Source: Gemmatimonadota bacterium
Lineage (GTDB): Bacteria; Orphanbacterota; Orphanbacteria; Orphanbacterales; Orphanbacteraceae
Direction of reading: 5' to 3'
NCBI GenBank assembly: GCA_020061515.1
Contig: JAGUYC010000050.1
Location: forward strand, 1-55,383
Length of the DNA: 55,383 nucleotides
How positions within the stretch are numbered: the first letter of the stretch is position 1; every line of letters starts with the position of its first letter. Made by a program: the position numbers and the translations under genes. Below the pieces are notes generated by a model. The model was not told where the DNA came from. It made no database searches and was given only the letters and a program-made list of their open reading frames with translations. This document shows, piece by piece, positions 6,574-50,289 of this stretch.

Positions 6574-6987
6574 TCAATCGACAACGAGAAGGGAGTTGTA
6601 GCCCCCGTATCCGTCGTCCACGCGCTGGGGATTGTTCGGATCTTCCTTCCACGTTTTCTCGTCGACCACGAACTTGTACTGATAACGGCCGGGTGGGAGA
6701 TCGACGACGATCTGCCAGACGCCGTCGCCGTCCTCGTCGCTCATCAGGCCGATCAGGTAGCTTCCCGTCTGCGCTTGCCCGCGCAGCCAATCATTCTCCG
6801 GCCAGTTGCCGGCAAGCTGGACTCGCTGCGCCGACGGCGCTTCGAATTGGAAGAGGACCCCGCCTTCCGCGTGGTAAGGAGGCGGCAAGCGCCGCTTCAC
6901 GAAGTTCAGATTGACGCACGCGGCGGCGAAGAGAAGAACCGCCAGCAAGGCGATTCCGGCCGTGGAAGCGTGAAGTCCTCTTCTCAT
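6574..6987 (-). CDS. Small lipoprotein consisting of a single CBM48 (AMPK-beta glycogen-binding) module
   Basis: Internal ATG at 6987 gives MRRGLHASTAGIALLAVLLFAAAC (lipobox FAAAC), 10 nt after the stop of the upstream gene with GGAG/GAGG between. VQLAGNWPENDW...GRYQYKFVVDEKTWKEDPNNP is a clear CBM48 signature. The longer listed ORF 6574..7278 overlaps the upstream gene. Confidence 0.8.
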   Translation of the reverse strand: MRRGLHASTAGIALLAVLLFAAACVNLNFVKRRLPPPYHAEGGVLFQFEAPSAQRVQLAGNWPENDWLRGQAQTGSYLIGLMSDEDGDGVWQIVVDLPPGRYQYKFVVDEKTWKEDPNNPQRVDDGYGGYNSLLVVD

Positions 6988-6997
6988 CCTCGCACTC

Positions 6998-10794: not shown

Positions 10795-11681
10795 CGCTCT
10801 CCCCCGATCGGGACGGTGATCGACGCCGTGTACGAGACGCCGAGCGTCTTGTGCGTCGCGAACCCCGCGTCGAAGAACCAAGACCCCGTGAGGACCCCGA
10901 ACCCGCCCCAGTACTCGTGGTCGAAGATCCCGCTCCGGAGGGCGAAGACATCGAAGAAGAGGACCTCGCCGCCGATCGCGGGGGAAAGGTCGCCTCTTCG
11001 GTTCGTTGCGAAGCCCCCGGAGACAAGGGAAGCTTCGTTCCATAGATAAGTGATTGAACCCTCAACCTCCGCTTCCATCCGCGTCCCTCCCCCCCCCCCA
11101 ACGAACTCGAACGCGGGCACTCCCACGTTTCGAAGGATCGCTCCGATGCGAAGGTCGCCGCGAGGCCGAACGATCGCCCCGACATCCGCGGCGAGCTTCG
11201 TCTGCGAGCCGTAATCGACCTTCTCCAGAGTTTCGAAATCGCGGAAGTCCGAGTAGCCGACGCGGAAGACCTTTCCCGTGATCCCGATCCCAAGCTCGCC
11301 GAGCATTGGAATCGAGGTCTGCCGGCCTGCGGAGAGGAAGAAGAGATCCTCGGAGACCACGCCCGCGAGTGACGTGCGGTGCCAGCCGACGCCCGCGGTT
11401 CCGAATGCAGGCGGAAGGGGAAGCGCGAAGGCGGCGAAGTTGATCGAGAGGTCCTCGACGACGTAGGGCCGGTTGTGCGCGAGAAGCACGGCCGCGCGCC
11501 TCTGCCAGGCAAGGCCGGCCGGGTTCCAATAGACCGCCGCCGGATCGTCCGCGAGCGCGTGGAACGTCTTCGCCATCGCGACCGCCCGCGCGCCCGTCTC
11601 GAGCCGATCGAAATACGCGCCGCCGGCCGAAGGGACGAAAAAGGCGAGAAGAAGCGCGAGAAATCCGGCCTTTCTCGTCAT
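10791..11681 (-). CDS. PorV/PorQ-like (FadL-fold) outer-membrane protein
   Basis: Internal ATG at 11681 gives MTRKAGFLALLLAFFVPSAGGA and overlaps the upstream stop as ATGA (11678-11681). The N-terminal motif GARAVAMAKTFHALADDPAAVYWNPAGLA matches, as I remember it, the GARxxGMGGAFxAVADDxSAxYWNPAGL signature of PorV/PorQ/UPF0164-type barrels. Confidence 0.55.
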   Translation of the reverse strand: MTRKAGFLALLLAFFVPSAGGAYFDRLETGARAVAMAKTFHALADDPAAVYWNPAGLAWQRRAAVLLAHNRPYVVEDLSINFAAFALPLPPAFGTAGVGWHRTSLAGVVSEDLFFLSAGRQTSIPMLGELGIGITGKVFRVGYSDFRDFETLEKVDYGSQTKLAADVGAIVRPRGDLRIGAILRNVGVPAFEFVGGGGGTRMEAEVEGSITYLWNEASLVSGGFATNRRGDLSPAIGGEVLFFDVFALRSGIFDHEYWGGFGVLTGSWFFDAGFATHKTLGVSYTASITVPIGGER

Positions 11682-12967
11682 CGAACCACCGAGAACGCCT
11701 TCGTGGTCCGGAAAACACCCGGCTCCACGACGAAGCGGAGAAGATAGATGCCGCCGGGGACGAAGCGCCCACTCTCGTCGCGGCCGTCCCACCAATCCAG
11801 AGCCGGATTCTGCGGGGCGACCACCGGCCGCACGTCCTCGCGGAAGAGAAGACGCACGCGCTCGCCCTTCAAACTGTAGATCTCCGCGCTGACGGTGATG
11901 CCGCGGAAGAAGTCGGTCGTGTCAGGCTCCGGAGAGAGCGTGAAGTCGAAACGGAGAAGACGCCCCTCCTCGGGCGAGACGATCGGATCGCGGAACGTGA
12001 GCGTGCTGAACGAGAAGTTCTTCGGGGTGACCGGCGGATCCACGAAGAACGCGCGCCGGCTCGTGACGCCGACGCCGATGTCGGCCAGGCTGTCGGGAGG
12101 CAGGGTATCGACCACGCTCTCCTCCCAGACGAACACCTTCCGTCCGTCTCCCGTGACGTAGGATGTATCATCGAGCGGAAGGATCGCGAAGTTGTCGATG
12201 GTCACCTGGTTCGAGGACTCGATCGTGTGTCCGCCCAGATTGTCGGGCGCCGAGTCGGGGCCGCCCGTGCCGTCCGCCCCGGCCGTGAGGATCGCCACGA
12301 CCCGGATCGACCGGACCTCGTCGAGCCCGTTCGGAAGAACGTAGACCGAATCTCGCTGGGTCGGATCCCAGCGGCGCTCGAGCGTCTCTCCGTAGAAGAC
12401 CGGCCAAGGGATCCGCGCCTCCATCGATCGCCCGGTGTTCCCTTGGGCGAAGGTCGCGACCGTCTCGAAGAGGGAGATATCGACCTGAGTCACCTGGTTC
12501 TCGCGCGCGAAACGCCAGAGCTGCGGGGTTGTGTTTCCGTCCCACGTGGCCAGGAAAAGATCGGGGAAAAGATTTCCCGCGAACACGAAGTTCCGGCGCC
12601 ACGAGTTCAGCTCCGTCATCTTGTCGAGACCGCCGGGGCGATAGTCGAAAAGAAGAATGATGTTGTTGTCCCAAGCGATCCCATCGACCGCGACGTATAA
12701 ATTGTCGCTGTCCCAAGTGACCTTGATCTGGTTGATGTCGTTATTGAAGCCCCACTTCGAGTCGTTGTCCCTCTCCTGGGCCACGACCTCGAGAACGCCG
12801 TCTCCGTTCACGTCGATGAGGGTGTCCACGAAGACGACCTCGTCCGCCTCGAAGTCGTTCGAGTAGCCGTCGATGGCAATGCGGTTCGTAAGATCCGCGC
12901 CCGTGGTCGCGAGGGCCGGAAGAACGAGCGATGCAGAAAGGAAGAGCGTAGCGGTGACTCGCCGCAT
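11678..12967 (-). CDS. Surface protein: CBM9/DOMON-like sugar-binding module plus FlgD-Ig/T9SS-type C-terminal domain
   Basis: Signal peptide MRRVTATLFLSASLVLPALA from ATG 12967; ATG 13048 is an alternative start and neither has a good SD. IDGYSNDFE...IKVTWDSDNLYVAVDG...EARIPWPVFYG is a module shared with 15900..19907 and 27393..29438. The C-terminus AEIYSLKGERVRLLF...WDGRDESGRFVPGGIYLLRF is a CTD-like fold signature. Confidence 0.65.
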   Translation of the reverse strand: MRRVTATLFLSASLVLPALATTGADLTNRIAIDGYSNDFEADEVVFVDTLIDVNGDGVLEVVAQERDNDSKWGFNNDINQIKVTWDSDNLYVAVDGIAWDNNIILLFDYRPGGLDKMTELNSWRRNFVFAGNLFPDLFLATWDGNTTPQLWRFARENQVTQVDISLFETVATFAQGNTGRSMEARIPWPVFYGETLERRWDPTQRDSVYVLPNGLDEVRSIRVVAILTAGADGTGGPDSAPDNLGGHTIESSNQVTIDNFAILPLDDTSYVTGDGRKVFVWEESVVDTLPPDSLADIGVGVTSRRAFFVDPPVTPKNFSFSTLTFRDPIVSPEEGRLLRFDFTLSPEPDTTDFFRGITVSAEIYSLKGERVRLLFREDVRPVVAPQNPALDWWDGRDESGRFVPGGIYLLRFVVEPGVFRTTKAFSVVR

Positions 12968-29497: not shown

Positions 29498-29660
29498 CGA
29501 TGCTTCGGCTGCGGTCGGTCGATCGTGATCCCGGGCGGGATGGAGACGATCCGGATGGCGGGGGCCCTCGCGAGCCTTTGCGTCAAGGGTTCCCACACGG
29601 AACTGGGAGAGGCCCCCGACCATCGCGGATCCGATTGTAAACGAAGGCCGCCGGCGCGGC

Positions 29661-31253
29661 TCAGCTCTTCAGGATCTTCTCGACTTCCTCCCGATCCGCG
29701 TCCATCACGTACTCGATCCCGCTCACCCGAGCCGCCTCCGGCGTGAGCGCCACGAGATCGTCTCTCGAGATATGTTCCAGTGAGAACTTTCGAGCGCCGC
29801 ACATGATCTGCCGGAGACCTTGGGCGAGACGTTCGTAGTAAGTGTAGAGCCCGATGGCTCCGGTCGGCAGCTTCTCGAACTCGTCGTCGCCGAGTTCCCT
29901 TCGAAGCTCCGCCGCCGTCACGAAGATCTCGTCCTTCGTGTTCCCGAAACGCTCGACGTAGACGGGGACCTGATTCTCCTCGATCGTGCGGCCGAGCGTC
30001 TTTCCGACCATGACGGCGGCGATCGGCGAACGGGCCATGCCGACGAGCTTCACGAACGGCGCGCCGAGGGCCAGACCCTTGAAGATGGCGTCCTCGAACG
30101 TGAACCCGCTGGCCACCGCGAGAGCGGGAAGGTGTTCCTTCTTCGCGGCGAGCATCGAGGCGTACTGGTAGAGAAGGGAGTGCAGCTCGACCGGAGGAAT
30201 GCCCCACTCGTTCATCATGCGCCACGGGCTCATCCCCGTCCCGCCTCCGGCCCCGTCGACCGTGAGGAGATCGAGCTTGAACTTGGAGGCGAACTTGATC
30301 GCCCTCGCGAGATCGGCCGGACGATACGCTCCGGTCTTCAGGAAGACGTACTTGGCGCCGGCCTTGCGCAGCTCCTCGACTCGCTTCCCGAATGATCCCT
30401 CCTCGACCATGCCGACGCGGGAATGCCGCTCGAACTCCTTGAACGCTCCGCGCTCGAACGCCTTGATGACGAGGGGATCCATCGGGTTCGGAAGAACGAC
30501 GTAGCCACGCTCATGAAGCATCTGCGCCTTCTTGAGATTGCGGACCTTGACCTCTCCCCCGATGTTCTTCGCTCCCTGGCCCCATTTGAGCTCGACGATC
30601 TGAACGCCGAGTTCCTGAATCGCGTACTCCTGCGCGCCGAGACGGGTATCCTCCACGTTCGCCTGCACGATGATCGCGCCGTACCCGTCTCGCTGATGAT
30701 CCTGGTAGAGACGCACGCGCCGTTTGAGATCGACCGTGTCGACGACCCGGCCTTTCTTGATCACCGACTCGGGATCCATCCCGGCGACGTTTTCGCCGAT
30801 GGTGAGTCCCGTTCCGGCGATCGCCGAACCGATCGCCAACCCGTCCCAGTTGTTCTTCGCCACGTCGGTGGAGCCGATTCCGGGGATGATCCACGGGTAG
30901 CGGAACTTGATCCCGCGATCATGCCCGAAGACCGCCTCGAGGCTGACGTTCGGGAAGATCGCCTTGTCGCTGTCCGCCTCGATCCCGTGGGCGCCCACGG
31001 CGGTCCCCATGATGTTGAAGTGCGAATAATCGACCGGATAGAACTTCTCGGCCGCCGTCGTGATGACGCCGAAGGGCTGGGGATAGATCACCTCGTGCCC
31101 ACGGTACGCGGACTTGCCGATCTCGCACATGCCGATGCACCCGTCCACGCAGGTCACGCACATGCCCGAGGAGGGAGTGATCGACTCCTCCGTCCTATTC
31201 TTCGTCAGCGTCGCGGCGGACGAGTTTGTCCTAGAGAATGTCTTCGATTGCAT
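29661..31253 (-). CDS. FMN-binding glutamate-synthase-family protein (GltB FMN/Fe-S domain only)
   Basis: Internal ATG 31253 (MQSKTF…). The listed N-terminal 24 aa are Arg/Lys junk overlapping the upstream gene. N-terminal Cys cluster CVTCVDGCIGMC. TIM-barrel FMN-site signature LTVDGAGGGTGMSPW. No amidotransferase or GXGXG domains. Confidence 0.85.
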   Translation of the reverse strand: MQSKTFSRTNSSAATLTKNRTEESITPSSGMCVTCVDGCIGMCEIGKSAYRGHEVIYPQPFGVITTAAEKFYPVDYSHFNIMGTAVGAHGIEADSDKAIFPNVSLEAVFGHDRGIKFRYPWIIPGIGSTDVAKNNWDGLAIGSAIAGTGLTIGENVAGMDPESVIKKGRVVDTVDLKRRVRLYQDHQRDGYGAIIVQANVEDTRLGAQEYAIQELGVQIVELKWGQGAKNIGGEVKVRNLKKAQMLHERGYVVLPNPMDPLVIKAFERGAFKEFERHSRVGMVEEGSFGKRVEELRKAGAKYVFLKTGAYRPADLARAIKFASKFKLDLLTVDGAGGGTGMSPWRMMNEWGIPPVELHSLLYQYASMLAAKKEHLPALAVASGFTFEDAIFKGLALGAPFVKLVGMARSPIAAVMVGKTLGRTIEENQVPVYVERFGNTKDEIFVTAAELRRELGDDEFEKLPTGAIGLYTYYERLAQGLRQIMCGARKFSLEHISRDDLVALTPEAARVSGIEYVMDADREEVEKILKS

Positions 31254-31977
31254 CTCCTGCTCCCTTTCCTTCTTTCTCTCGGCCGGTTTCCGGTTTTTTG
31301 GACGCCGCGGTGATCTCGCAGGCAACGCAAGGCTCCATGTAGCACATCATGTCCTCGAAAGGTTCCTTCTCGAGGCAGGGGGGGCTCAGGTTCGCGCATC
31401 CGCCGCAGATCGCCTTGTCCGGATCGGTGTACGTGCAGCGGAGCTGGCAGGCCGGGCACACGTAGATGCAACCCCCGCACAGCCGGCAGACTTCGGAACG
31501 GATGTCGAACGGCGTCCCGATGGTGCGTGTCTCGCCGCGCCCCCGGAAGCCGATCGCCTTCGCCATCATCTGTTCCTCGCACATCCGCACGCACAGCCCG
31601 CACATGATGCAGTCCTCATGTTCCTGTCGGAAACGCTGGCGGCGGATGTTGTGCGCGGAAGCCAGATCTTGGATAACCTTCGACTGCGGACAAGAGGCCA
31701 AGAGCAGCTCGAGGATGACCTTGCGGGCCCTCACGACGCGGGCAGACGAAGTCCTCACCTTCAGCCCCTCTTCGGCCGGATAGGTGCAGGAGGTCACCAG
31801 CTTCGCTCTCGGACCCTCGCCGATCTCGACCACGCAAAGCCGGCACGCTCCGTAAGGCGAAAGCCCCTCCATGTGGCACAAGGTCGGTATCGGAAAACCA
31901 TAGAAACGGGAAACCTCCAGGAGGGTCGTGCCCTTCTCGACCGATACCGACAAGCCGTTGATGTTCAGCGTGATCAC
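31231..31977 (-). CDS. 2Fe-2S plus 4Fe-4S iron-sulfur protein (NuoG/HydA N-terminal-like)
   Basis: GTG 31977 lies 8 nt after AGGAGG and overlaps the upstream stop as GTGA (31974-31977), giving (M)ITLNINGLSVSVEKGTTLLEV… Motifs: CHMEGLSPYGACRLCVVE (2Fe-2S) and CIMCGLCVRMC and CRLCGGCIYVCP (4Fe-4S). The 3-prime end overlaps the next gene by 23 nt. Confidence 0.8.
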   Translation of the reverse strand: MITLNINGLSVSVEKGTTLLEVSRFYGFPIPTLCHMEGLSPYGACRLCVVEIGEGPRAKLVTSCTYPAEEGLKVRTSSARVVRARKVILELLLASCPQSKVIQDLASAHNIRRQRFRQEHEDCIMCGLCVRMCEEQMMAKAIGFRGRGETRTIGTPFDIRSEVCRLCGGCIYVCPACQLRCTYTDPDKAICGGCANLSPPCLEKEPFEDMMCYMEPCVACEITAASKKPETGREKEGKGAGDAIEDIL

Positions 31978-34900
31978 GCGTATTGCCTCCTGGCTTCGGA
32001 CACCGATTCCTCCTCCTCCTTCGGCCTGGTGAACTCGAGGTCGCAGCGGAGGCACCGGTGCGCCTCACGGCTCGCTTCCTCGGGGGAAAGGGACACTTCC
32101 ACCTCGGCGAAGTTCCTCTTTCGCCACGCCGCCGCCGCGCGCGGCGTCTCCGTCCGTCCGCCCTCCTCTGCGCCCTCTTCGAGGGGAGCCGCCGGCTCGA
32201 TGTAGATCCTCGGAAGGACCGGCTGCGCGGGCTCGAGAAGGATCGCGCCCCGAACGTAGCGATCGATCATGATCGCCGCCTTCTTCCCCGCTGCGATCGC
32301 CTCCACCACGGTGTTCGGTCCGGTCACGAGATCGCCCGCGGCGAAGACGCCGGACCGGTTGGTGAGGAGCGTTTTCGGATCCACGCGCACCGTGTTCTTC
32401 TTGGTGATCTCCACTCCGCTCGAAAGCGCGGGGGAGATCGTGTCCGCTCCCGAGTCCTCGCCGATGGCGACGACCAGGGTATCCAAAGCGATCGTGTGCT
32501 CGGTTCCCGGAAGAGGAACCGGGCGCCGCCTTCCGCTGGAGTCGACCTCGCCGAGCTCGTTTCGAACGCACTCGACGCCGACGAGCCGCCCGCCTTCCGA
32601 AAGCACGCGAAGAGGCGTGACGAGCGTCTGGATCGCGATCCCTTCCTGCTCCGCCGCCTCGACCTCCTCCGCGAACGCGGGCATCTCGTCTCGCGTTCGG
32701 CGGTAGAGGATCGTGACGCTTTCGACGCCGTCCAGTCGGAGCGCCGTTCGGGCGGCGTCCACGGCGGAGTTGCCCCCGCCGATCACCCCGACGCGGCCCT
32801 TCGCCGGCTTCGTCCCGCGGAGGTTGAAGGCCTTCAGGAACTCGATCGACGGATGAACGCCCGCGACGTTCTCGCCTTCCAGGCGAAGGGGAACGCTCCT
32901 GTGCGCGCCGATTGCCAGAAGCACCGCACCGTAGCCGTCCTTGATCAGTCCGTCCACGTCGATGTCGCGCCCGAGGGCGACTCCGCACTCGATGCGGATG
33001 TTCTCGTTGAGGAGCGCGTGGATCTCTTTCTCGATGACTTCCCTCGGCAGGCGGTAGGGCGGGATCGCGCAGTAGAGCATGCCGCCCGGCCTGTCTTCCG
33101 CCTCAAACACCGTGACCTTGTAACCCTTGAGAGAGAGATGGTGGGCGGCGGTGATGCCCGCGGGCCCCGAACCGACGATGGCGACGCGGGGCGGTTCCCC
33201 GTCCTCCCAAACCGCCGGGGTCGGCCGGCAGATCGAAGGATCGGTGCGGTCGGTGATGAAGCGTTTCAAGGCGCGGATCGCCACCGCATCCCCTCCGGTC
33301 GCGCCCGCCACGCATCTTTCCTCGCACGGATGATGGCAGACACGCGCGCAGACCGAAGGGAACGGGTTCGTCTCCCGGATCGCGCGGTAGGCTTCCTCGT
33401 ACTCGCCGCGAGCGATGTGCGCGACATAGCGCCACGCCTCCGTTCCGAGGGGACACGCGGCCTGGCAGGGAGCCCCGACAAGCGGCCGGCAAACGAACGC
33501 ATCGCACTTCTTGTCGACGACGTGCCGCAGGTACTCCTCGCGGAAGTATCGCAGCGTGCTGAGCACCGGGTTCGGAGCCGTCTGGCCGAGTCCGCACATC
33601 GTGGTGTCCTTCACCACGTGCGCCAACTCCTCCAGAAGATCGATGTGCTCGAGCGTTCCCTTTCCCGAGGCGATGTCCTCGAGGATCTCGTACATCCGCT
33701 GCGTCCCCTTGCGGCACGTGAAGCACTTCCCGCACGATTCATCCTTCAAGAAGTTCATGAAGTACTTCGCCACATCGACCATGCACGTGTTCTCGTCCAT
33801 GACGATCATCCCGCCGGAGCCCATGATGGTTCCTGCTTCCGCCAGGCTGTCGTAGTCGATGGGGAGGTCGAACTTGTCCGCGGGAATGCAGCCGCCCGAC
33901 GGTCCACCCGTCTGAATGGCTTTGATCCTCGCCTTGCCGGAAGGGCCCCCTCCGATCTCGTAGACGATCTTTCGGATCGTGGTCCCCATCGGGACTTCCA
34001 CGAGGCCCGTGTTCTTGATCTTTCCGACGAGGCTGAAGATCTTCGTTCCGGAATTGCCTTTGGTTCCGATCTTCGCGAACTCATCCGCCCCGCGCCGGAT
34101 GATCAGCGGAATGTTCGCCCAGGTCTCGACGTTGTTGATCGCGGTCGGCCTCCCGCCGATTCCTCTCTGAACCGGGAACGGAGGACGCTGGCGAGGTTCA
34201 CCGATCTTCCCTTCGATCGAACGGATGAGCGCGGTCTCCTCACCGCACACGAACGCGCCCGCCCCCTTGACGATGTCGATGTCGAACGAGAACGTCGTGC
34301 CCAGGATCTCCCGGCCCAAAAGCCCATACTCGCGGGCCTGTCTCAGGGCGATGATCAGGTGCTTGATCGCGAGCGGGTATTCATTCCGCACATAAACGAT
34401 CCCCTTTGTTGCTCCCGTTCCGTAGGCCCCGATGATCATCCCCTCGATGATGCTGTGGGGATTCCCCTCGAGGATGCTCCGGTCCATGTACGCGCCCGGA
34501 TCCCCCTCGTCCGCGTTGCACACGAGGTACTTGCCGCCGTCGACCGGTTGCGCCGCGAGAAGCTCCCATTTCCTCCCCGTGGGAAACCCGCCGCCCCCAC
34601 GCCCGCGGAGCCCGGACTTCTTGACCTCCTCCACCACCCACTGCGGGCTCCCGCTCGCCAGCGCCTTCTCGAGAGCGGCGTATCCTTCCTCCGAGATGTA
34701 GTTGTTGATTCGAATCGGATCGACCTTCTGTCCCATCTCCAGCAAACTGCGCTTCTGATATTTGAAGAACGGAATATCGTCTTGTCGGTAGTACTTCCGT
34801 CCGGATTGGGGATCCTGATAGACCAGCTCATCCACATGCTCTCCGACAAGGGCGGCATCGATGATGCGCGGCACGTCCTCCAGCCGCACCTGAGCGTAGA

Positions 34901-35159
34901 AGGCTCCTGCGGGCTCCACCAGAACGAAAGGACCCATCTCGCAGTCCAGGATGTCCCCCCCCGTGATGGTGAGGGCGATCTTGTCCTGGATACCCCTGGT
35001 CATGATGTGTCGCTTCGCGACCCGGATGATGCCGTTCGAGCCGCACGCTTGGCAGGCGGTCCCCGCGCACAGAACGACGCGAAGCCTGCCCGCATCCACG
35101 TCATAGCGGAGAATGCCCCGGAGTCTCTTCAGATCGTCGATGGAAGCCAATCTCGGCAT
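31974..35159 (-). CDS. Fusion flavoprotein: NuoF/HydB-like NADH-FMN module fused to GltD/NfnB-like FAD-NAD(P)H oxidoreductase
   Basis: 1061 aa. N-terminal thioredoxin-like region VLCAGTACQACGS. NuoF signatures GRGGGGFPTGRKW, CGKCFTCRKG, MCGLGQTAP. GltD-like Fe-S region CQAACPLG…CARVCHHPCEERC. Two Rossmann motifs: VAIVGSGPAGITAA and VGVIGGGNSAVDAA. Confidence 0.9.
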   Translation of the reverse strand: MPRLASIDDLKRLRGILRYDVDAGRLRVVLCAGTACQACGSNGIIRVAKRHIMTRGIQDKIALTITGGDILDCEMGPFVLVEPAGAFYAQVRLEDVPRIIDAALVGEHVDELVYQDPQSGRKYYRQDDIPFFKYQKRSLLEMGQKVDPIRINNYISEEGYAALEKALASGSPQWVVEEVKKSGLRGRGGGGFPTGRKWELLAAQPVDGGKYLVCNADEGDPGAYMDRSILEGNPHSIIEGMIIGAYGTGATKGIVYVRNEYPLAIKHLIIALRQAREYGLLGREILGTTFSFDIDIVKGAGAFVCGEETALIRSIEGKIGEPRQRPPFPVQRGIGGRPTAINNVETWANIPLIIRRGADEFAKIGTKGNSGTKIFSLVGKIKNTGLVEVPMGTTIRKIVYEIGGGPSGKARIKAIQTGGPSGGCIPADKFDLPIDYDSLAEAGTIMGSGGMIVMDENTCMVDVAKYFMNFLKDESCGKCFTCRKGTQRMYEILEDIASGKGTLEHIDLLEELAHVVKDTTMCGLGQTAPNPVLSTLRYFREEYLRHVVDKKCDAFVCRPLVGAPCQAACPLGTEAWRYVAHIARGEYEEAYRAIRETNPFPSVCARVCHHPCEERCVAGATGGDAVAIRALKRFITDRTDPSICRPTPAVWEDGEPPRVAIVGSGPAGITAAHHLSLKGYKVTVFEAEDRPGGMLYCAIPPYRLPREVIEKEIHALLNENIRIECGVALGRDIDVDGLIKDGYGAVLLAIGAHRSVPLRLEGENVAGVHPSIEFLKAFNLRGTKPAKGRVGVIGGGNSAVDAARTALRLDGVESVTILYRRTRDEMPAFAEEVEAAEQEGIAIQTLVTPLRVLSEGGRLVGVECVRNELGEVDSSGRRRPVPLPGTEHTIALDTLVVAIGEDSGADTISPALSSGVEITKKNTVRVDPKTLLTNRSGVFAAGDLVTGPNTVVEAIAAGKKAAIMIDRYVRGAILLEPAQPVLPRIYIEPAAPLEEGAEEGGRTETPRAAAAWRKRNFAEVEVSLSPEEASREAHRCLRCDLEFTRPKEEEESVSEARRQYA

Positions 35160-35199: not shown

Positions 35200-36177
35200 T
35201 CAGACCAAATCGAACATGTGGTTCTTGCAGCCGCGGCGCGAACAGATCTGAAGCATTCCGCCTCCGCGGACGATCATCGCCACCATCGGCGCGCCGCAGT
35301 CGGTACAAACCGTCGCGCCCGCGATCTCCGCATGACAATGCGGACAGAAGAAATTCACGATCGTGTCCTTCGGAATCGGGTCCTCCGATTCGACCGAGTA
35401 GCTGCCGTAGAGACTCGACAGCCGCAGCCACCCGTGCTTGTCGGCGAAGGCTGCCGTCACTCGAATCGACGGATGCCCGTCGAGCAGCCTCTCGGGATCC
35501 ATGAAGCTGTGGTTGCACCGCGGGCAGCTGGTTTCGAGCGGGAAGACGCGAATGTCCGTCTCGGCGTCGACCGCGTCCAAACCGGTCTTCGACTTGTCGA
35601 TGATCGACCGAACCTTGGACGCGTTCACCTTCGAAAAGTAGTGGCCGTCGACGACGGCGACCGGGCCGAGAGCGCACGCCCCGAGGCAGTTCACGGTGTG
35701 GAGCGTGAACTCCTTGTCCGCCGTGGTGTCGCCGGCCTTCACGTCCAGCCGCTCCTCGAACTCCCGGGCGACCGCCTGCGCGCCGCGGACATGGCACGCG
35801 GTTCCGAGGCAAACCGAGAGGAGATGCTTCCCTCGCGGCTTCAGGCTGAACGACTTGTAGAAGGTCGCCACGCCGTAGATATCCACGAGGGAGCGGCCCG
35901 TTCGTTCGGCGGTCAGGTTGAGGGCGTGGCGCGGAAGATAGCCGTATTTCGCCTGGACCGCCTCGAGGATCGAGATGATCCCCCCGTGCGCCGATCCGAA
36001 CTTGTCGATGATCCCCGCGAGCGCGCTCGGACGAATCCCCTCGAACTCGTCGCACTCGAAGCGCGGGGAACCGAACGACCTCAAGTACTCGCAGGTCTCC
36101 AGATGGAGACACGTTGCGCACAGCCCCTCCCCCTTGTCGGAAAGGAGCGCCTCCTCGCCTTTCTCCGCTCGGTTCAT
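35200..36177 (-). CDS. NuoE/HydC-like thioredoxin-fold 2Fe-2S protein with N-terminal 4-Cys module and C-terminal Cys-pair (zinc-ribbon-like) domain
   Basis: Internal ATG 36177 lies 1 nt after the upstream stop. N-terminal GLCATCLHLETCEYLRSFGSPRFECDEFEG. NuoE core CLGTACHVRGA…CLGACALGPV. C-terminal CPRC…CPHC…CTDC…CSRRGC. Confidence 0.85.
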   Translation of the reverse strand: MNRAEKGEEALLSDKGEGLCATCLHLETCEYLRSFGSPRFECDEFEGIRPSALAGIIDKFGSAHGGIISILEAVQAKYGYLPRHALNLTAERTGRSLVDIYGVATFYKSFSLKPRGKHLLSVCLGTACHVRGAQAVAREFEERLDVKAGDTTADKEFTLHTVNCLGACALGPVAVVDGHYFSKVNASKVRSIIDKSKTGLDAVDAETDIRVFPLETSCPRCNHSFMDPERLLDGHPSIRVTAAFADKHGWLRLSSLYGSYSVESEDPIPKDTIVNFFCPHCHAEIAGATVCTDCGAPMVAMIVRGGGMLQICSRRGCKNHMFDLV

Positions 36178-36178
36178 T

Positions 36179-36484
36179 TCAGCAATACTCCTCGCAGTGC
36201 CACACACCTCCCTCCGGCTTGGGATAGGTGCAGGTCGCACGGATCGCGCAGTTCTTGCAAAGGCCCTTGTACTTGGTTTCCGCTTCCTGCGGGCTCGGCG
36301 GGAGAGCCTCTTTCTCTTCCTTCGACGAAGAACTCTCAAGGGATCCCACGCGCTCCTCCACGCAGCCCAACACTCCTTCGTGCTCGTCGCAGTAAAAGAG
36401 AGGAGGGCCGAAAAGCTTCAGATAAGAACATGTCTCGGCGTTGTCGCAGGTCGAGCAAATCCCCAGAGGACGTGATGTCTCCAT
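36179..36484 (-). CDS. Small cysteine-rich protein, two copies of the CX2CX5CX11-12C[DE]E module
   Basis: 101 aa from internal ATG 36484; the rest of the listed 294-aa ORF is Arg/Gly junk overlapping 36568..36948. Modules GICSTCDNAETCSYLKLFGPPLFYCDEHEG and GLCKNCAIRATCTYPKPEGGVWHCEEYC. The motif recurs in frame in neighbouring genes, which supports coding. Confidence 0.6.
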   Translation of the reverse strand: METSRPLGICSTCDNAETCSYLKLFGPPLFYCDEHEGVLGCVEERVGSLESSSSKEEKEALPPSPQEAETKYKGLCKNCAIRATCTYPKPEGGVWHCEEYC

Positions 36485-36567
36485 CGGGTCTTCCGCATCC
36501 TTCGGCCGGCCGCCGGCCCGGGACCGGCGACCGGAGGGGGCCACGATCCCCTCTCTCTTTCGCGGAC

Positions 36568-36948
36568 CTACCGAAACTCCTCGCAGAACCACACTCCCTC
36601 CGCCGATTTCGGGTAGGTGCATCCTTCCAGCCGCACGCACGTCCGGCACAACCCCCTCATCTCCCCCACCGGCCAAGCGCCCTCCGGGGCCTCGATCGAG
36701 GCGAGGGACGGCCCGACTCGGGGCCGCTCCGTGGCCGGGCGAATCTCGCCGTAGCCGTCGAACTCCTCGCAGAAGCGGACCGGGAGACCGGGGCTTCTCG
36801 GGAACGTGCACGTGGCGGCGCTGGCGCAGGTGGCGCAGAGACCGCTCCCGCCAAGGACCGGTCGCTCCTCGCGAACCGCTCGTTTCCCTTGCGCGGCGGG
36901 GCTCCTCCGCGCCTTTGCCTTCGTGATCTTCGTCTTCGTGGGGGTCAT
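36568..36948 (-). CDS. Small cysteine-rich protein, two copies of the CX2CX5CX11-12CEEF module
   Basis: 126 aa with GGAGGTG 7 nt upstream of ATG 36948. Modules GLCATCASAATCTFPRSPGLPVRFCEEFDG and GLCRTCVRLEGCTYPKSAEGVWFCEEFR. First gene after the sigma-54 promoter. Confidence 0.6.
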   Translation of the reverse strand: MTPTKTKITKAKARRSPAAQGKRAVREERPVLGGSGLCATCASAATCTFPRSPGLPVRFCEEFDGYGEIRPATERPRVGPSLASIEAPEGAWPVGEMRGLCRTCVRLEGCTYPKSAEGVWFCEEFR

Positions 36949-37018
36949 CGTCGCTCACCTCCGGTTTCGTCTTCCGTGCCGATCCGTTCTTCGGGATCGG
37001 CGCTGCTTCTTGGTAAAG

Positions 37019-37034
37019 GCAAGCGGCATGCCAG
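37019..37034 (-). promoter_or_regulatory. Sigma-54 (-24/-12) promoter of the redox operon
   Basis: The minus strand reads CTGGCAT-GCCGC-TTGC, against the consensus TGGCAC-N5-TTGC, with correct GG/GC spacing. It lies ~70 nt upstream of ATG 36948. A sigma-54-dependent NtrC-type regulator is encoded immediately upstream. Confidence 0.6.
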
Positions 37035-37280: not shown

Positions 37281-38627
37281 CTACGTGGCTTCTTGCTTTT
37301 TCTGCTTCTCCCGCAGCGTCTTGCGGTCAATGCCGAGGATCTCCGCCGCTCGGGTCTTGTTTCCCCCGACGCTCGCCAGCACGTTCCGGATGTGCTCCGC
37401 CTCGACCTCCGCCAGAGTCCGGTCCACGCCGGACCCGCGCACCGCCGAGAAGCGGAGATACGGAGGGAGAACGGGAACGTCGATCACGTCCCCTTCGGTC
37501 ATCACCACCAGCCGCTGCACGAGGTTTTCCAGCTCCCGCACGTTGCCCGGCCAGTGATACCGCTTGAGCACGCGGAGCGCCCCGTCGGTGAAGCGCGGAA
37601 CCGGCTGGTTCAGCTCCTTCGAGAACTTCGTGCCGAAATGGTTGATGAGAAGAAGGATGTCGTCTCCCCTCTCGCGCAGGGGCGGAACGGTGATCGTGAT
37701 GACGTTCAGGCGGTAGAAGAGGTCCTCGCGGAAGGAGCCTTTCTTCACCAGCCCGAGGAGGTTCTTGTTCGTGGCCGCGACGATCGCGACATCGACTTTC
37801 CTCGGCCGGCTGGTGCCGACCATGCAGATCTCTTTGGTCTGAAGAACACGGAGCAGCTTCACTTGCATCGACGCGCTCGTCTCGCTGATCTCGTCGAGGA
37901 AGATCGTTCCTCCTTCGGCGGTCGCGAAGAAGCCCGCCCGCGACTCGGACGCGCCCGTGAACGCTCCCTTCACGTAGCCGAAGAGCTCGCTCTCGAGAAG
38001 CCCCTCCGGAATCCCGCCGCAGTTCACCGGAACGAAAGGCGCCGAGGCTCTCGGGCTCTCGTAGTGGATGGCGCGCGCGACCAGCTCCTTCCCCGTCCCG
38101 CTCTCGCCGGTGATGAGGACCGTCGCGGGTGTCCTTGATGCCTTAACGATCGAGTGAAACACCCTGCCCATCACGTCCGACTCTGCGATGAGCCCCTGGG
38201 GACCGGCCGGCTTCGCGCCTGCGCCCGTTCGCGCGCCCCTCCGCGTGCGCAGTCTGTCGAGCCCGCGGCGCACGGCCGTGAAGAGCTCCTCGTCGGTGAA
38301 GGGCTTGGGAAGATATTCGGCCGCCCCGGCCTTCATGGCCTCGACCGCTCCCTCGACCGAGGCGTATCCGGTGATCATCACGATCTCCGTGTCCGCGAAG
38401 TTCTCCCGCACGTGGCGGACAAGATCCGTTCCCGTGATCTTGGGCATCTTGTAGTCCGTGATGACGAGATCGACGGGCGTCTCCTCGAGAATCCGGATCG
38501 CTTCCTCGACTCCCGAAGCCGAGAAGACCAAGTACCCTTGCGCGGTGAGGTTTCTCCGGAGCACCTCGACCGTCACGGGGGAATCGTCGACCACCAGGAT
38601 TCTCTCTTGCTTCTCAGGCTCCGGCAT
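37281..38627 (-). CDS. Sigma-54-dependent response regulator (NtrC family: REC-AAA+-Fis HTH)
   Basis: Receiver domain ILVVDDSP…DLVITDYKMP. AAA+ Walker A GESGTGKE, plus ESELFGYVKGAFTGA (GAFTGA loop). C-terminal HTH NKTRAAEILGIDRKTLREK. Start is ATG 38627 (best SD spacing) or 38636; the listed start 38786 lies inside the kinase gene. Confidence 0.9.
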   Translation of the reverse strand: MPEPEKQERILVVDDSPVTVEVLRRNLTAQGYLVFSASGVEEAIRILEETPVDLVITDYKMPKITGTDLVRHVRENFADTEIVMITGYASVEGAVEAMKAGAAEYLPKPFTDEELFTAVRRGLDRLRTRRGARTGAGAKPAGPQGLIAESDVMGRVFHSIVKASRTPATVLITGESGTGKELVARAIHYESPRASAPFVPVNCGGIPEGLLESELFGYVKGAFTGASESRAGFFATAEGGTIFLDEISETSASMQVKLLRVLQTKEICMVGTSRPRKVDVAIVAATNKNLLGLVKKGSFREDLFYRLNVITITVPPLRERGDDILLLINHFGTKFSKELNQPVPRFTDGALRVLKRYHWPGNVRELENLVQRLVVMTEGDVIDVPVLPPYLRFSAVRGSGVDRTLAEVEAEHIRNVLASVGGNKTRAAEILGIDRKTLREKQKKQEAT

Positions 38628-40305
38628 TCTCGTCATCCTCTCTCGCGGGCTCCGGCCCCGCCGCCGGCAGACGAACCTCGAACCGGGATCCTTCTCCGAC
38701 CTGGCTGAAGACCTCGATTCGGCCTTGATGGCCCGCCACGATCCCCTGGACGACCGGCAAGCCGAGCCCCGTCCCCTCGTCGACATCCTTGGTCGTGAAG
38801 AAGGGGATGAAGATCTTCTCCATCGTCTCCTCGCTCATGCCGATTCCGGTGTCCTCCACGACCAGGCGGATGTGATCGCCCTCCGCGAGCGTGCGAACCG
38901 TCAGACGCCCGCCGTCCGGCATCGCTTGCAGGGCGTTGACCACGAGGTTGACCAGGATCTGGCTCATCTGCGCGGGGTCGGCTTCGATCAGGGGGAGATT
39001 CGGCGAAAGCTCGCGCTCAAGCTCGACGCCGCCCTTCGAGCAGCGCGCCTCGAGGAAGTAGAGGCCCTTCTCGACGACCTCGTTCAGATCGACCGTTCCG
39101 CTCGTGACCGGCGCTTGGCGCGCGAATGTCATCAACTTTCGAATCACTTCCCTCGAATGAAGGCACGCGTCCACGATCTTTCGAAGATCTCCCGCGAGAT
39201 CGCTCGGAAGGGCCGAGTCCTTCTCGGCCAGCTGGGCAAGGCCCAGGATGTTTCCGAGAGGCTCGTTCAGCTCATGCGCCACGTGCGCGGCGAGCTGTCC
39301 GATCGTGGCGAGACGGTCCGCGTGCCGCAGCTGTTCGTGCAGCTTCGTCCTTTCCTCTTCCACCTGCTTTCGCTCGACGATCAACGCCGTCTGCCGCGCC
39401 ACTGCGTCGATCAGCACGCGCTCCTCCCGAAGAAAGGGCCCCTCGTCGAGCTCCGGCTTCTTCGCCGCGTAGACGACCTGCAGGAAGCCCCTGCTTTGGC
39501 CCCCGACCATGATCGACGCGGTCAGGCTGCGCCCCTCCTCGGGGAATCCGGGCGTGGAATAGACGCTCCGGTCCAGGACGATCTTGGCGAACGTGATGAC
39601 CGGGTATTGCCACGCGGGAGGAAGAAGCTCGACGATTCCCCGAAGGATATCCGCGAGCGAGATGCCGGGCGTCGCGGCGAGATTCGCGATTGCGTAGAGG
39701 CAGGTCAACTCCTTGAGCCGCTCCCTGAGCGCGGCCTGGGTTCGCTGACCGGCGAGGGCGATGCCAAGGTTCCGCGCGAAGCGCGTGTAGAGATCGACCG
39801 TCTCTTGATCGAAGAAGCCCCTTCGCTCGCTCTTGAGAACGAGGAAGCCGGTGTCCTTGTCCGCGACGGGAAGAGGAACGATCGCGATCGAATGGAAGCG
39901 GCCGTCGGATGAGAACCGGCGGAGCCGCGCTTTCTCGCCCTCTTTGCGCGCATCGGCGAGATCCGCTTCCGCGTCGGCGGTCCAGAAGACACTCCCCGCG
40001 AACAGCGCGCGATGCTCCTTGCGAAGAGGAGCCATGTGAATCCGGAACGACTCCCCCGCAACTTGCCGGGACTCGCTCCGGACGTGGCTTCCGTCCTCTC
40101 CGAGCCACAGCTCGACCTCTCGGCATCCGGAGAACTCGATCAGGTTCCCGATCACTTCGTGAAGGAAATCGCTCCTCGAGATCGGACGGTTCGCCTTCTG
40201 GAGAATGCGATGCGACAGATCGCGGAATTCCCTCGCCGTCCGGGCGCCCCGCGGCTCGGGGGTCTCTTCACTCGCCGATTCGTTGCGGCCGTTCTTCGCT
40301 TCCAT
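38614..40305 (-). CDS. Cytoplasmic sensor histidine kinase with tandem GAF-like domains
   Basis: 563 aa with no TM segments. H-box LAAHVAHELNEPL, N-box LVNLVVNALQAM, G1 VEDTGIGM, G2 GTGLGLPV. Overlaps the regulator gene start. Confidence 0.85.
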   Translation of the reverse strand: MEAKNGRNESASEETPEPRGARTAREFRDLSHRILQKANRPISRSDFLHEVIGNLIEFSGCREVELWLGEDGSHVRSESRQVAGESFRIHMAPLRKEHRALFAGSVFWTADAEADLADARKEGEKARLRRFSSDGRFHSIAIVPLPVADKDTGFLVLKSERRGFFDQETVDLYTRFARNLGIALAGQRTQAALRERLKELTCLYAIANLAATPGISLADILRGIVELLPPAWQYPVITFAKIVLDRSVYSTPGFPEEGRSLTASIMVGGQSRGFLQVVYAAKKPELDEGPFLREERVLIDAVARQTALIVERKQVEEERTKLHEQLRHADRLATIGQLAAHVAHELNEPLGNILGLAQLAEKDSALPSDLAGDLRKIVDACLHSREVIRKLMTFARQAPVTSGTVDLNEVVEKGLYFLEARCSKGGVELERELSPNLPLIEADPAQMSQILVNLVVNALQAMPDGGRLTVRTLAEGDHIRLVVEDTGIGMSEETMEKIFIPFFTTKDVDEGTGLGLPVVQGIVAGHQGRIEVFSQVGEGSRFEVRLPAAGPEPAREDDENAGA

Positions 40306-50203: not shown

Positions 50204-50289
50204 TGGTGCCGGGGGCGGGATTCGAACCCGCACAGGCGTCGCCCACTGCCCCCTCAAGACAGCGTGTCTACCAATTCCACCACCCCGGC
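50204..50289 (-). tRNA. tRNA-Leu (anticodon GAG), class II with long variable arm, CCA encoded
   Basis: Minus strand: GCCGGGGTGGTGGAATTGGTAGACACGCTGTCTTGAGGGGGCAGTGGGCGACGCCTGTGCGGGTTCGAATCCCGCCCCCGGCACCA. 7-bp acceptor stem GCCGGGG/CCCCGGC, anticodon stem CUGUC/GGCAG with loop UUGAGGG, T-arm GCGGG-TTCGAAT-CCCGC. D-loop AATTGGTAG is typical of tRNA-Leu. Confidence 0.9.

Follow-up and report, generated by a model that had tools for sequence, protein, structure and literature searches.

What is the four-cysteine module of about 30 residues that recurs in three consecutive genes of the window analysed here (a 55,383-nucleotide stretch of a Gemmatimonadota contig), and why does it accompany a NuoE-like subunit? 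A sequence-only reading had counted five copies, two in each of two small proteins and one at the N-terminus of the NuoE-like protein, had divided them into two subtypes (A and B) and had taken each small protein as one A-B pair and the NuoE-like module as A-type. A six-frame regular expression scan for C..C.{5}C.{8,16}C[DE][DE] returned exactly five matches, all on the minus strand, whose positions reproduce this arrangement (Table 1), and the peptide strings quoted in that reading agree exactly with the DNA.

Table 1. Features of the locus, in positions of the window and in order of transcription
Feature	Position	Strand	Evidence or remark
Cytoplasmic histidine kinase: GAF, second GAF-like region, HisKA, HATPase	38614..40305	-	Pfam
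NtrC-family enhancer-binding response regulator, REC-AAA+-HTH_8	37281..38636	-	Pfam
Sigma-54-type -24/-12 element, TGGCATGCCGCTTGC	37019..37033	-	About 70 nt upstream of the small protein 1 ATG
Small protein 1, 126 aa	36568..36948	-	Basic N-tail, A, linker of about 40 aa, divergent B, end …PKSAEGVWFCEEFR-stop
A module of small protein 1, GLCATCASAATCTFPRSPGLPVRFCEEFDG	36754..36843	-	Regex scan, match 36763-36837
B module of small protein 1, GLCRTCVRLEGCTYPKSAEGVWFCEEFR	36571..36654	-	Regex scan, match 36577-36648
Small protein 2, 101 aa, canonical A-linker-B	36179..36484	-	ATG 36484, end …PEGGVWHCEEYC-stop
A module of small protein 2, GICSTCDNAETCSYLKLFGPPLFYCDEHEG	36374..36463	-	Regex scan, match 36383-36457
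B module of small protein 2, GLCKNCAIRATCTYPKPEGGVWHCEEYC	36182..36265	-	Nearly invariant in 121 relatives; regex match 36188-36259
NuoE-like (Bfu 'C'-type) subunit, 325 aa	35200..36177	-	PF01257 at 1.5e-45
A module on the NuoE-like N-terminus, GLCATCLHLETCEYLRSFGSPRFECDEFEG	36037..36126	-	Regex scan, match 36046-36120
NuoF-like (Bfu 'B') + GltD/NfnL-like FAD/NAD(P)H fusion, 1061 aa	31974..35159	-	Pfam, NCBIfam
[2Fe-2S] + 2x[4Fe-4S] subunit (Fer2_4, Fer4_7)	31231..31977	-	Start set via 248-aa relatives
GltB-like FMN domain protein	29661..31253	-	Glu_synthase only; last operon gene

The window is 65% G+C and has long spurious ORFs in every frame, and gene callers disagree over the small genes, reporting a fused 299-aa ORF in three related loci (L092-94) and no gene in L086 and L089, as might be seen if the cysteine patterns had arisen by chance in non-coding or mis-framed GC-rich DNA. 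This explanation is extremely improbable and is already refuted, because the module is conserved. When the window was simulated 200 times with a first-order Markov model, the full motif never appeared and the bare cysteine spacing appeared 0.035 times per simulation, compared to five observed. Both genes are under purifying selection, with a dN/dS of 0.29 for small protein 1 (measured against the 96% relative L092, in which both modules are unchanged) and 0.11 for small protein 2, and the replacements fall outside the modules. With the same architecture present in approximately 1,950 clusters from many phyla, the small ORFs, whose conservation and coding signal the earlier reading had left to be checked, are real genes. 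Small protein 1 is preceded by GGAGGTG 8 nt ahead of its ATG, and the small protein 2 stop codon lies 1 nt before the NuoE-like ATG. The 101-aa gene may instead start at GTG 36592, the choice of one gene caller, which would give a 137-aa protein and leave the modules unaffected. Small protein 1 can be aligned with the family, and no counterpart was found in the 71% relative L090. The 111-aa gene called there, considered as a second small gene, was rejected as no family member; thus, the first small gene of the window is a recent duplicate, a lineage-specific extra paralogue.

A word-index search with small protein 2 found 174 homologues, and an exhaustive HMMER search identified 1,957 cluster representatives at E<=1e-3 (clusters defined at 50% identity) from at least 141 species, including Planctomycetota, Zixibacteria, WOR-3 and Thermodesulfobacteriota and not Actinobacteria; every cluster is labelled 'hypothetical'. 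All eight cysteines are invariant in 121 relatives, in which B is nearly invariant as a whole (mean column identity of 76%). The two subtypes hold across the family: the x12 spacing of A, which ends in C[DE]E[FH][DE]G, is kept in 245 of 260 relatives, and the x11 spacing of B (CTYPK..GVW.CEE[FY]) in 236 of 260. B always forms the C-terminal end (…PEGGVWHCEEY-x-stop), to which the length is fixed, exactly four residues following the last cysteine in 234 of the 260. The A and B profiles are homologous (hhalign probability 98.6%, E 8.5e-16). Both small proteins of the window have an x12 and then an x11 Cys4 module, a linker of about 40 aa and a C-E-E-[YF]-x end, the features by which we propose the A-linker-B 'CEEY-tail' proteins as a new family.

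The sequence-only reading could not assign the module to a named domain family, and its suggested comparison with Pfam and PDB profiles produced no above-threshold relative. Pfam and NCBIfam searches with both small proteins and the 121 relatives gave nothing above threshold, and in the PDB neither sequence searches nor searches with a full-length profile or with profiles of A and B taken singly found a match below E 0.4. AlphaFold2 returned no confident fold (pLDDT 52.9 with 26 sequences, 53.7 with 121), the models having essentially no secondary structure and no strands. An Rfam scan of the window detected a tRNA only, and literature searches turned up background on Bfu enzymes but no paper describing the module or an enzyme of the NuoEF-GltB type. 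Below threshold, WhiB (PF02467) matched the window protein with 17.8 bits (E 0.005; gathering threshold of 23.6) and 11 of the 121 relatives at E<0.1, none over the gathering threshold; DUF7685 matched five of the 121 (best E 1.3e-4), and FpoO and Zur gave one match each. Like Wbl proteins, which bind a [4Fe-4S] cluster and the primary sigma factor, A-B proteins are small (some 80-120 aa) and carry a C-x2-C-x5-C core with a G-V-W turn after it (GGVWH in B, GVWGG in Wbl); for either group, a regulatory role that depends on a cluster is plausible. However, membership in Wbl was rejected: its cysteine order is C-Xn-C-X2-C-X5-C and then G[VI]WGG, whereas here it is C-X2-C-X5-C-X11/12-C, with the fourth cysteine after the core instead of before it and GGVWH ahead of the last cysteine, in B only. 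In addition, each A-B protein has two modules, the host phyla are those listed above and not Actinobacteria, hhalign gave a probability of 0.8% with a manually entered WhiB1 sequence, and no Wbl structure was among the PDB profile matches.

Other cysteine-rich families were rejected as well. No Fer4 family, as expected for a 2x[4Fe-4S] ferredoxin (CX2CX2CX3CP), matched either small protein at E<=1 or any of the 121 relatives at E<=0.1. The hhalign probability with a manually entered C. vinosum HiPIP sequence was 0.3%, and the PDB searches gave no HiPIP match. A zinc ribbon or knuckle domain, which would have two CxxC(H) knuckles and a small beta fold predicted with confidence, was set aside given one CxxC per module, stray sub-threshold Zn_ribbon matches and no strands in the AlphaFold2 models. 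Motifs of the type C-x2-C-x4/5-C…C bind [4Fe-4S] clusters in the FNR N-terminus, endonuclease III/MutY, SPASM/Twitch domains and RnfB/CFeSP (PF04060), and CX2CX5C spacing ligates such clusters in FNR, Wbl, endonuclease III and SPASM domains. The module has the spacing of the first three cysteines and a remote fourth cysteine in common with FNR, endonuclease III/MutY, SPASM and PF04060; these show no profile similarity to it and were absent from the Pfam scans at E<=1, and unlike them the module is a free-standing unit of 30 residues that can be shuffled between proteins. Judged by the cysteine pattern, the metal- or Fe-S-binding mini-domain of the sequence-only reading is plausible.

The genes behind the small proteins encode a complex that by sequence is of the same kind as the Bfu bifurcating complexes (HydABC, NfnABC/Stn), with a HydC/NuoE-like [2Fe-2S] subunit and a HydB/NuoF-like FMN subunit that has a [2Fe-2S] domain at its N-terminus, the two carrying PF01257, PF01512 and PF10589. 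In the NuoE-like protein, the A module is followed by a [2Fe-2S] thioredoxin-like core (residues 55-196), best matched in the PDB by HydC (8a6t_C at 6e-41, residues 54-195 only), and by an unmatched C-terminal domain (residues ~200-325) with eight cysteines and clear zinc-ribbon-like CxxC…CxxC motifs. A 96% identical NuoE-like protein carries the name Candidatus Eisenbacteria. In the NuoF-GltD fusion, the NuoF part matches HydB/NfnB (7t2r_B at 1.8e-205, query residues 25-562) and the GltD part NfnA (9n5u_A at 7e-96). The GltB-like protein has no amidotransferase domain, and a terminator-like hairpin lies behind it at 29660..29647. Known Bfu complexes differ from this one, which has a GltB-type FMN catalytic partner and sigma-54/NtrC control, and none of the solved Bfu subunits covers the NuoE A module (residues 1-50) or resembles A or B.

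Could the module be a structural zinc site, an inert knob for folding or docking or an assembly factor, with neither a redox nor a regulatory role? The C-terminal CxxC…CxxC motifs of the NuoE-like protein and the weak matches to zinc-ribbon and CXXC zinc-finger families are in favor of this, and the Cys4 sites of solved Bfu enzymes are reported to hold Zn instead of clusters in some cases (PMC12018979). We nevertheless consider it distinctly unlikely, as each module has a single CxxC pair, AlphaFold2, usually confident on zinc knuckles, gave no structure, and the near-invariance of B beyond its cysteines argues for more than a scaffold. Furthermore, C-x2-C-x5-C…C spacing with flanking aromatic residues, as found here, is more typical of cluster ligation.

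A role as a mini-ferredoxin or electron wire is the main rival to the companion subunit that we favor below, and we regard it as a real but doubtful possibility. Each module would hold a [4Fe-4S] cluster, the A module of NuoE adding a further, peripheral one to a Bfu-type complex. The A-B protein would be the dedicated two-cluster donor or acceptor of that complex, for example as low-potential partner to a glutamate synthase that uses NADH/NADPH and bifurcates. Additional Cys4 sites and small partner proteins with Fe-S clusters typify the Bfu family (PMC12018979, PMC7483475). The ties of the module to NuoE are extensive: A is fused to the N-terminus of NuoE in 65 of the 120 closest NuoE clusters, B is fused to its C-terminus in two loci (L008 and L025), and an A-B ORF lies directly upstream in four of four NuoE operons that were chosen without reference to the small gene. 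NuoE and NuoF are also closest to the electron-bifurcating HydC/HydB and NfnB/NfnA. Co-occurrence with NuoE-like genes, which the earlier reading had proposed to look for, extends to 52 loci in which a Bfu-type NuoE/NuoF(-GltD)/2Fe-2S/GltB complex follows the small gene, the compared loci having been gathered via the PEGGVWHC pattern and not being phylogenetically independent.

The same small gene also accompanies plain glutamate dehydrogenase (GDH), a setting that sets it apart from Bfu partners and counts against a carrier role. In 15-16 of 72 loci (~21%) GDH is directly behind the small gene and no NuoE complex lies nearby; all eight cysteines are kept, and downstream at these loci only unrelated genes, and no redox or Fe-S enzyme, were found. 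The GDH is a 50-kDa enzyme in 15 of these loci and a 1022-aa enzyme in one. At L008 and L009, one copy of the small gene precedes GDH and another precedes NuoE. GDH-linked copies form a cross-phylum subfamily: the nearest neighbor in sequence of a GDH-linked copy was also GDH-linked in 14 of 17 cases compared to 3.9 expected (p<2e-4), several of the pairs being close relatives, and the last residue is E in 10 of 17 GDH-linked and 9 of 55 NuoE-linked copies. A further subfamily (266 aa, 13 clusters), encoded after GltB in the same operons, is a fusion of a GAF-like domain with A-B. If the protein were a mini-ferredoxin, the dehydrogenase loci would stem from operon rearrangement, and the mixed gene orders SMALL-GDH-NuoE… (L072) and NuoE…GltB-SMALL-SMALL-GDH (L011) favor this, since operon splitting could leave SMALL-GDH behind. 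Besides the GDH subfamily and the GAF-like sensor fusion, the conservation of B, far above the usual need of a simple carrier, and the lack of any match to a ferredoxin family weigh against it. The part of the earlier proposal that ties the module to the NuoE/F complex stood, owing to the A and B fusions, but an electron wire or docking module for that complex is insufficient as the full explanation, because of the GDH-only loci, the separate GDH sequence group and the GAF-like fusion.

The control region, which the sequence-only reading did not mention, places the small gene first behind a sigma-54-type element. With its -24 GG/-12 GC sequence and an adjacent Sigma54_activat activator, the window operon is predicted to be sigma-54-dependent and activated by the NtrC-family regulator, which probably starts at M51 or M54 of its maximal ORF. 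Of 75 related loci, 49 have an equivalent element ahead of the small gene, compared to 1 when the opposite strand of these regions is scanned, and an NtrC-type regulator was present within 3 kb upstream in 64 of the 68 loci with enough flank, whatever enzyme follows. Where a gap separates regulator and small gene (L002, L019, L055), it holds only unrelated genes and no extra partners. The second GAF-like region of the kinase (residues ~189-303) aligns to the N-terminal domain of the GAF-like-A-B fusions. These features would suit a transcriptional feedback factor that binds sigma-54 RNA polymerase, the NtrC-type activator or the GAF kinase and tunes its own operon through an O2-, NO- or redox-labile cluster by a logic like that of PspA/PspF or Wbl; the recurrent weak WhiB matches agree with such a role, and so does the hyper-conservation of B, which interaction with conserved transcription machinery would lead one to expect. 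Even so, it is very unlikely to be the explanation. Four loci (L087, L089, L036 and L063) have the small gene without a nearby kinase or regulator, Wbl homology is not significant, and the NuoE fusions and enzyme-type-specific subfamilies are hard to explain in this way.

We tentatively prefer, well short of confidence, to see the A-B protein as a companion subunit that bears metal clusters and docks on the enzyme encoded behind it. A companion of the enzyme is indicated rather than of the regulator alone because of the four of four NuoE operons (two of which have no kinase or regulator nearby), the short gaps between the small-gene stop and the next start (1-100 nt across loci) and the NuoE fusions, and it is not merely a wire because of the GDH-only loci, the double copies at L008 and L009, the GDH sequence group and the last-residue bias. 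As we envisage it, the module would be a mini-domain of ~28-30 residues folded around a center that the four invariant cysteines bind; this would most likely be a single [4Fe-4S] cluster in each module, with zinc as the alternative, and A and B would derive from duplication of one ancestral module. The free A-linker-B protein would be the first product of an operon fired from the sigma-54 promoter by the adjacent GAF kinase and NtrC-type regulator, and would dock on the glutamate-forming enzyme encoded directly behind: a 'NuoE-type' paralogue would pair with Bfu-type NuoE/NuoF(-GltD)/Fer2_4/GltB and a 'GDH-type' paralogue with glutamate dehydrogenase, A or B having repeatedly become covalently fused to NuoE. 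We infer that the state of the cluster (redox, O2 or Fe-S supply) would modulate the enzyme and possibly feed back on the kinase. Three observations fit the companion subunit less well. With A fused to about half of the close NuoE relatives, the module resembles an integral cofactor site more than a regulator, a B module almost identical between GDH-linked and NuoE-linked copies would be better suited to a common partner than to enzyme-specific docking, and the predicted models twice had a pLDDT of only 53-54.

The logic proposed for the companion subunit resembles that of small proteins that modulate enzymes of nitrogen assimilation. GarA/OdhI act on GDH, KGD and GOGAT in Actinobacteria, and IF7/IF17 act on cyanobacterial glutamine synthetase. 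Like these, the A-B proteins would be small and devoted to enzymes at the 2-oxoglutarate/glutamate node, and as with GarA-type modulators, one family would serve unrelated enzymes, here GDH and glutamate synthase. The two groups are unrelated in sequence and fold: GarA is a phosphorylation-regulated FHA domain, whereas the A-B protein has eight cysteines and is probably metal-bound. A more specific version, which we hold to be rather unlikely, is that the A-B proteins form a new class of companions with Fe-S clusters at this node. Their enzyme-specific paralogues would dock on GDH or on an uncharacterised, possibly bifurcating Bfu-type NuoEF-GltD-GltB glutamate synthase, and would couple enzyme activity, and via the related GAF domain the NtrC-type sigma-54 circuit, to redox or Fe-S status; they would then be functional analogues of GarA/IF7 built from an unrelated, hitherto unseen mini-domain that binds clusters.

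Judged from its genomic settings, the small two-module protein is widespread in uncultured anaerobes, lacks annotation and accompanies glutamate-forming enzymes that are under sigma-54 control. The family has been overlooked by annotation, as gene callers often skip A-B genes or merge them into a spurious ORF. The locus marks a conserved, unstudied predicted regulon of GAF kinase, NtrC-type activator, sigma-54 promoter, small protein and enzyme, and the host complex may represent a new type of glutamate synthase, linked to NADH/NADPH and perhaps bifurcating. Should the modules bind Fe-S clusters, they would constitute a new minimal cluster-binding domain, and in uncultured sediment bacteria the A-B protein would either serve glutamate formation as a new dedicated redox partner or be a new modulator of it that responds to redox state.

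The sequence-only reading had described five copies of a four-cysteine module of about 30 residues across three consecutive genes, and scanning the window (55 kb) in all six frames confirmed this as written, quoted peptides included. Five matches to C-x2-C-x5-C-x8-16-C-[DE]-[DE], and no others, were found, all within the consecutive ORFs for small protein 1, small protein 2 and a NuoE-like protein (Table). Both small proteins carry an A module (x12, …C[DE]E[FH][DE]G) followed by a B module (x11, CTYPK…GVW.CEE[FY]), and the N-terminus of the NuoE-like protein is an A module. That the copies are an artefact is scarcely credible, since the full motif was absent from all 200 Markov-simulated versions of the window (bare cysteine spacing, 0.035 per simulation) and the small ORFs carry a coding signal, with dN/dS of 0.29 and 0.11 for small genes 1 and 2 against L092, a 96% related contig. 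Nearly all replacements relative to L092 lie in the N-tail or linker. Small gene 1 arose by a recent duplication specific to this lineage, and its B has diverged (…PKSAEGVWFCEEFR); L090, a locus with 71% NuoE identity, has a single small gene, with a GDH (glutamate dehydrogenase) gene divergently placed between it and the regulator.

Coordinates of the features in the window and in related loci (L-numbers)
Feature	Sequence	Position	Strand	Remark
Small gene 1	window	36948..36568	minus	126 aa
Small gene 2	window	36484..36179	minus	101 aa
NuoE-like gene	window	36177..35200	minus	325 aa
NuoE-like C-terminal domain	window	35200..35580	minus	residues ~200-325, about 125 aa
Putative Bfu-type complex	window	29661..35159	minus	uncharacterised
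Sigma-54 -24/-12 element	window	37033..37019	minus	TGGCATGCCGCTTGC; ~70 nt upstream of small gene 1
Inverted repeat	window	36976..37003		10 bp, G+C-rich; GTGCCGATCC…GGATCGGCGC
tRNA gene	window	50207..50289	minus	sole Rfam match in window at gathering threshold
Fused 299-aa ORF	L092-L094 (96% relatives)	5100..5999		spurious call spanning both small genes
Small gene	L086	5662..5934		uncalled by gene callers
Small gene	L089	5611..5862		uncalled by gene callers
GAF-like-A-B protein	L095	7271..8071		after GltB, conserved
GAF-like-A-B protein	L096	9001..9804		after GltB, conserved
rpoN (sigma-54 gene)	L002/L010 (WOR-3)	11170..12504		directly after SMALL-GDH-GDH operon
rpoN (sigma-54 gene)	L012 (WOR-3)	6609..7964		directly after SMALL-GDH-GDH operon

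Across 260 representatives, the small protein has a median length of 115 aa with eight cysteines, a variable, mildly basic N-tail and a linker of weakly conserved sequence and constant length (median 40, IQR 37-41). The spacing of A is x12 in 245 and that of B x11 in 236, and in 234 the protein ends exactly four residues (EE[YF]x) beyond the last cysteine. In a 121-sequence alignment all eight cysteines are invariant and B nearly so (GLCxxCExRxTCT[YF]PKPEGGVWHCEEY), with a mean column identity of 76% versus 61% for A. A and B are homologous at the profile level (hhalign probability 98.6%, E 8.5e-16), and thus the earlier proposal of one module with two subtypes, which keep their spacings across the family, is correct. 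Variant arrangements (A-A-B, B-B and A-B-B) were also found.

For the 101-aa protein, a word-index search recovered 174 homologues; no Pfam domain is present in any, and each is either unnamed or called 'hypothetical'. When 1.84 billion cluster representatives were searched exhaustively with HMMER, 1,957 scored E≤1e-3, of which 1,289 reached E≤1e-10. With one genome scanned for each GTDB species, the family was present in at least 141 species. The loci listed are all MAGs (80/80), from Planctomycetota, Zixibacteria, WOR-3, Thermodesulfobacteriota, Ignavibacteria, Spirochaetota, Cloacimonadota, Verrucomicrobiota and others; the window itself lies close to Candidatus Eisenbacteria. Where the small genes start is uncertain.

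The module, which the sequence-only reading had left without a named domain family, could not be assigned to one here either: Pfam and NCBIfam scans of the small proteins gave no match above threshold, and profiles of the whole protein, A and B found no PDB sequence relative below E 0.4. The best Pfam match, WhiB, reached 17.8 bits (cut-off 23.6) and recurred weakly in 11 of 121 members, and hhalign probability was <1% against WhiB1 and a HiPIP (approximate reference sequences). By every test run, membership was rejected for WhiB-like (Wbl) proteins (WhiB score, hhalign), ferredoxins (Pfam), HiPIPs (hhalign, PDB profiles) and zinc ribbons. AlphaFold2 gave a pLDDT of 53-54 without secondary structure from 26 or 121 sequences, a result that a cofactor-dependent fold would fit but that proves nothing. 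A C-x2-C-x5-C motif with a remote fourth cysteine ligates [4Fe-4S] in FNR, Wbl proteins, endonuclease III and SPASM domains. Cys4 sites of Bfu enzymes (the NuoE/NuoF-based class of HydABC and NfnABC) can also hold Zn (PMC12018979), which would suit a structural Zn module, a reading we consider improbable. Since such cysteines serve both, whether the module would bind a cluster or Zn we can only infer.

On the minus strand of the window, genes for a GAF histidine kinase and an NtrC-type sigma-54 activator precede the two small genes, which are followed by those for the NuoE-like subunit, a NuoF-GltD fusion (GltD/NfnL-like), a [2Fe-2S]/2x[4Fe-4S] (Fer2_4/Fer4) subunit and a GltB-like protein with the FMN domain only, lacking the glutamine amidotransferase. 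The electron-bifurcating HydC/HydB and NfnB are the nearest relatives of NuoE and NuoF, and NfnA is that of the GltD part, so the predicted host enzyme is a Bfu-type complex whose last component is a glutamate-synthase FMN domain. No paper describing a NuoEF-GltD-GltB-type enzyme was found in the literature searched. GltD is absent in about 16 related loci; in one such operon (L086) NuoF bears ferredoxin-like domains instead. The NuoE-like protein's C-terminal domain has eight cysteines plus histidine (CPRCNH…FFCPHCHAE…CTDCGAP…CSRRGCKNH), is covered by no NuoE/HydC homologue in the PDB, has only sub-threshold Pfam matches (zinc-ribbon and HypA) and is kept in relatives. A truncated NuoE in L037, without the [2Fe-2S] part and adjoining SMALL-GDH, still bears the domain.

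Of 75 related loci, 49 have, upstream of the small gene, a sigma-54 element equivalent to that of the window; when these regions were read on the other strand, 1/75 had one. The inverted repeat lies between the -12 element and the start codon of small gene 1, and therefore in the predicted 5' leader. An NtrC-type activator occurs within 3 kb upstream in 64 of the 68 loci with enough flank; kinase and activator are absent nearby in two of four NuoE operons picked independently of the small gene. That the small protein is a feedback factor acting on kinase, activator or sigma-54 is, in our estimate, slightly more improbable still than the Zn reading.

Among 72-75 small genes (mostly one locus per GTDB species, phylogenetically non-independent, gathered via a PEGGVWHC pattern that biases toward canonical B, and with neighbours annotated by tblastn with window-derived references), the gene directly downstream was NuoE-like in 52, a 50-kDa GDH in 15, another small gene in 1 and 'other' in 4, one a 1022-aa NAD-GDH. 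Of the 17 GDH-linked copies, 14 have another such copy as their nearest neighbour, where permutation predicts 3.9 (p<2e-4), a similarity that spans phyla, and Glu is the last residue in 10/17 GDH-linked versus 9/55 NuoE-linked copies (Fisher p 0.001, ignoring phylogeny). These features point to putative enzyme-specific paralogues, although B barely differs between the groups, which counts against them. GDH-linked proteins tend to end …CEEYE and NuoE-linked ones mostly in R, Q, C or K; no other specificity-determining positions stand out.

These loci also bear on the main rival reading, in which the small protein would serve the Bfu-type complex as its dedicated electron wire or mini-ferredoxin, and which we regard as rather unlikely, though not much less likely than the one preferred. 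A pure wire fits poorly with GDH-only loci, where all eight cysteines are kept and a redox enzyme is absent downstream, and with L008 and L009, where GDH and NuoE are each preceded by a small gene of their own; however, the mixed operon orders of L011 and L072 mean that rearrangement could yield SMALL-GDH loci.

Gene fusions link the module to its enzyme physically: of the 120 closest NuoE clusters, 65 have A joined to the N-terminus, and in L008 and L025 B is attached to the NuoE C-terminus. In a 266-aa subfamily (13 clusters, P0319 and P0393-P0403 among them), A-B is joined to a GAF-like domain whose homologue in the window kinase is the second GAF-like region, residues 189-303 (pairwise E 6e-11); the gene for this protein follows GltB, and the operons concerned also start with a canonical small gene. 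Given the NuoE fusions and the A-B ORF directly upstream in all four independently picked NuoE operons, a physical role in the complex is favoured; of the earlier suggestion of a wire or docking module, this tie was supported, and the GDH-only loci speak against a pure wire. Whatever goes beyond sequence, synteny and fusion we infer, and we tentatively prefer a metal-cluster-bearing companion subunit that would dock on the downstream enzyme and modulate it. The family is rated a probable kind of small Cys4 metal-binding domain or accessory protein. The finding reaches far beyond the window: a Cys4 mini-domain without a name, and a small-protein family that has escaped annotation, go together with glutamate-forming enzymes under sigma-54 control.
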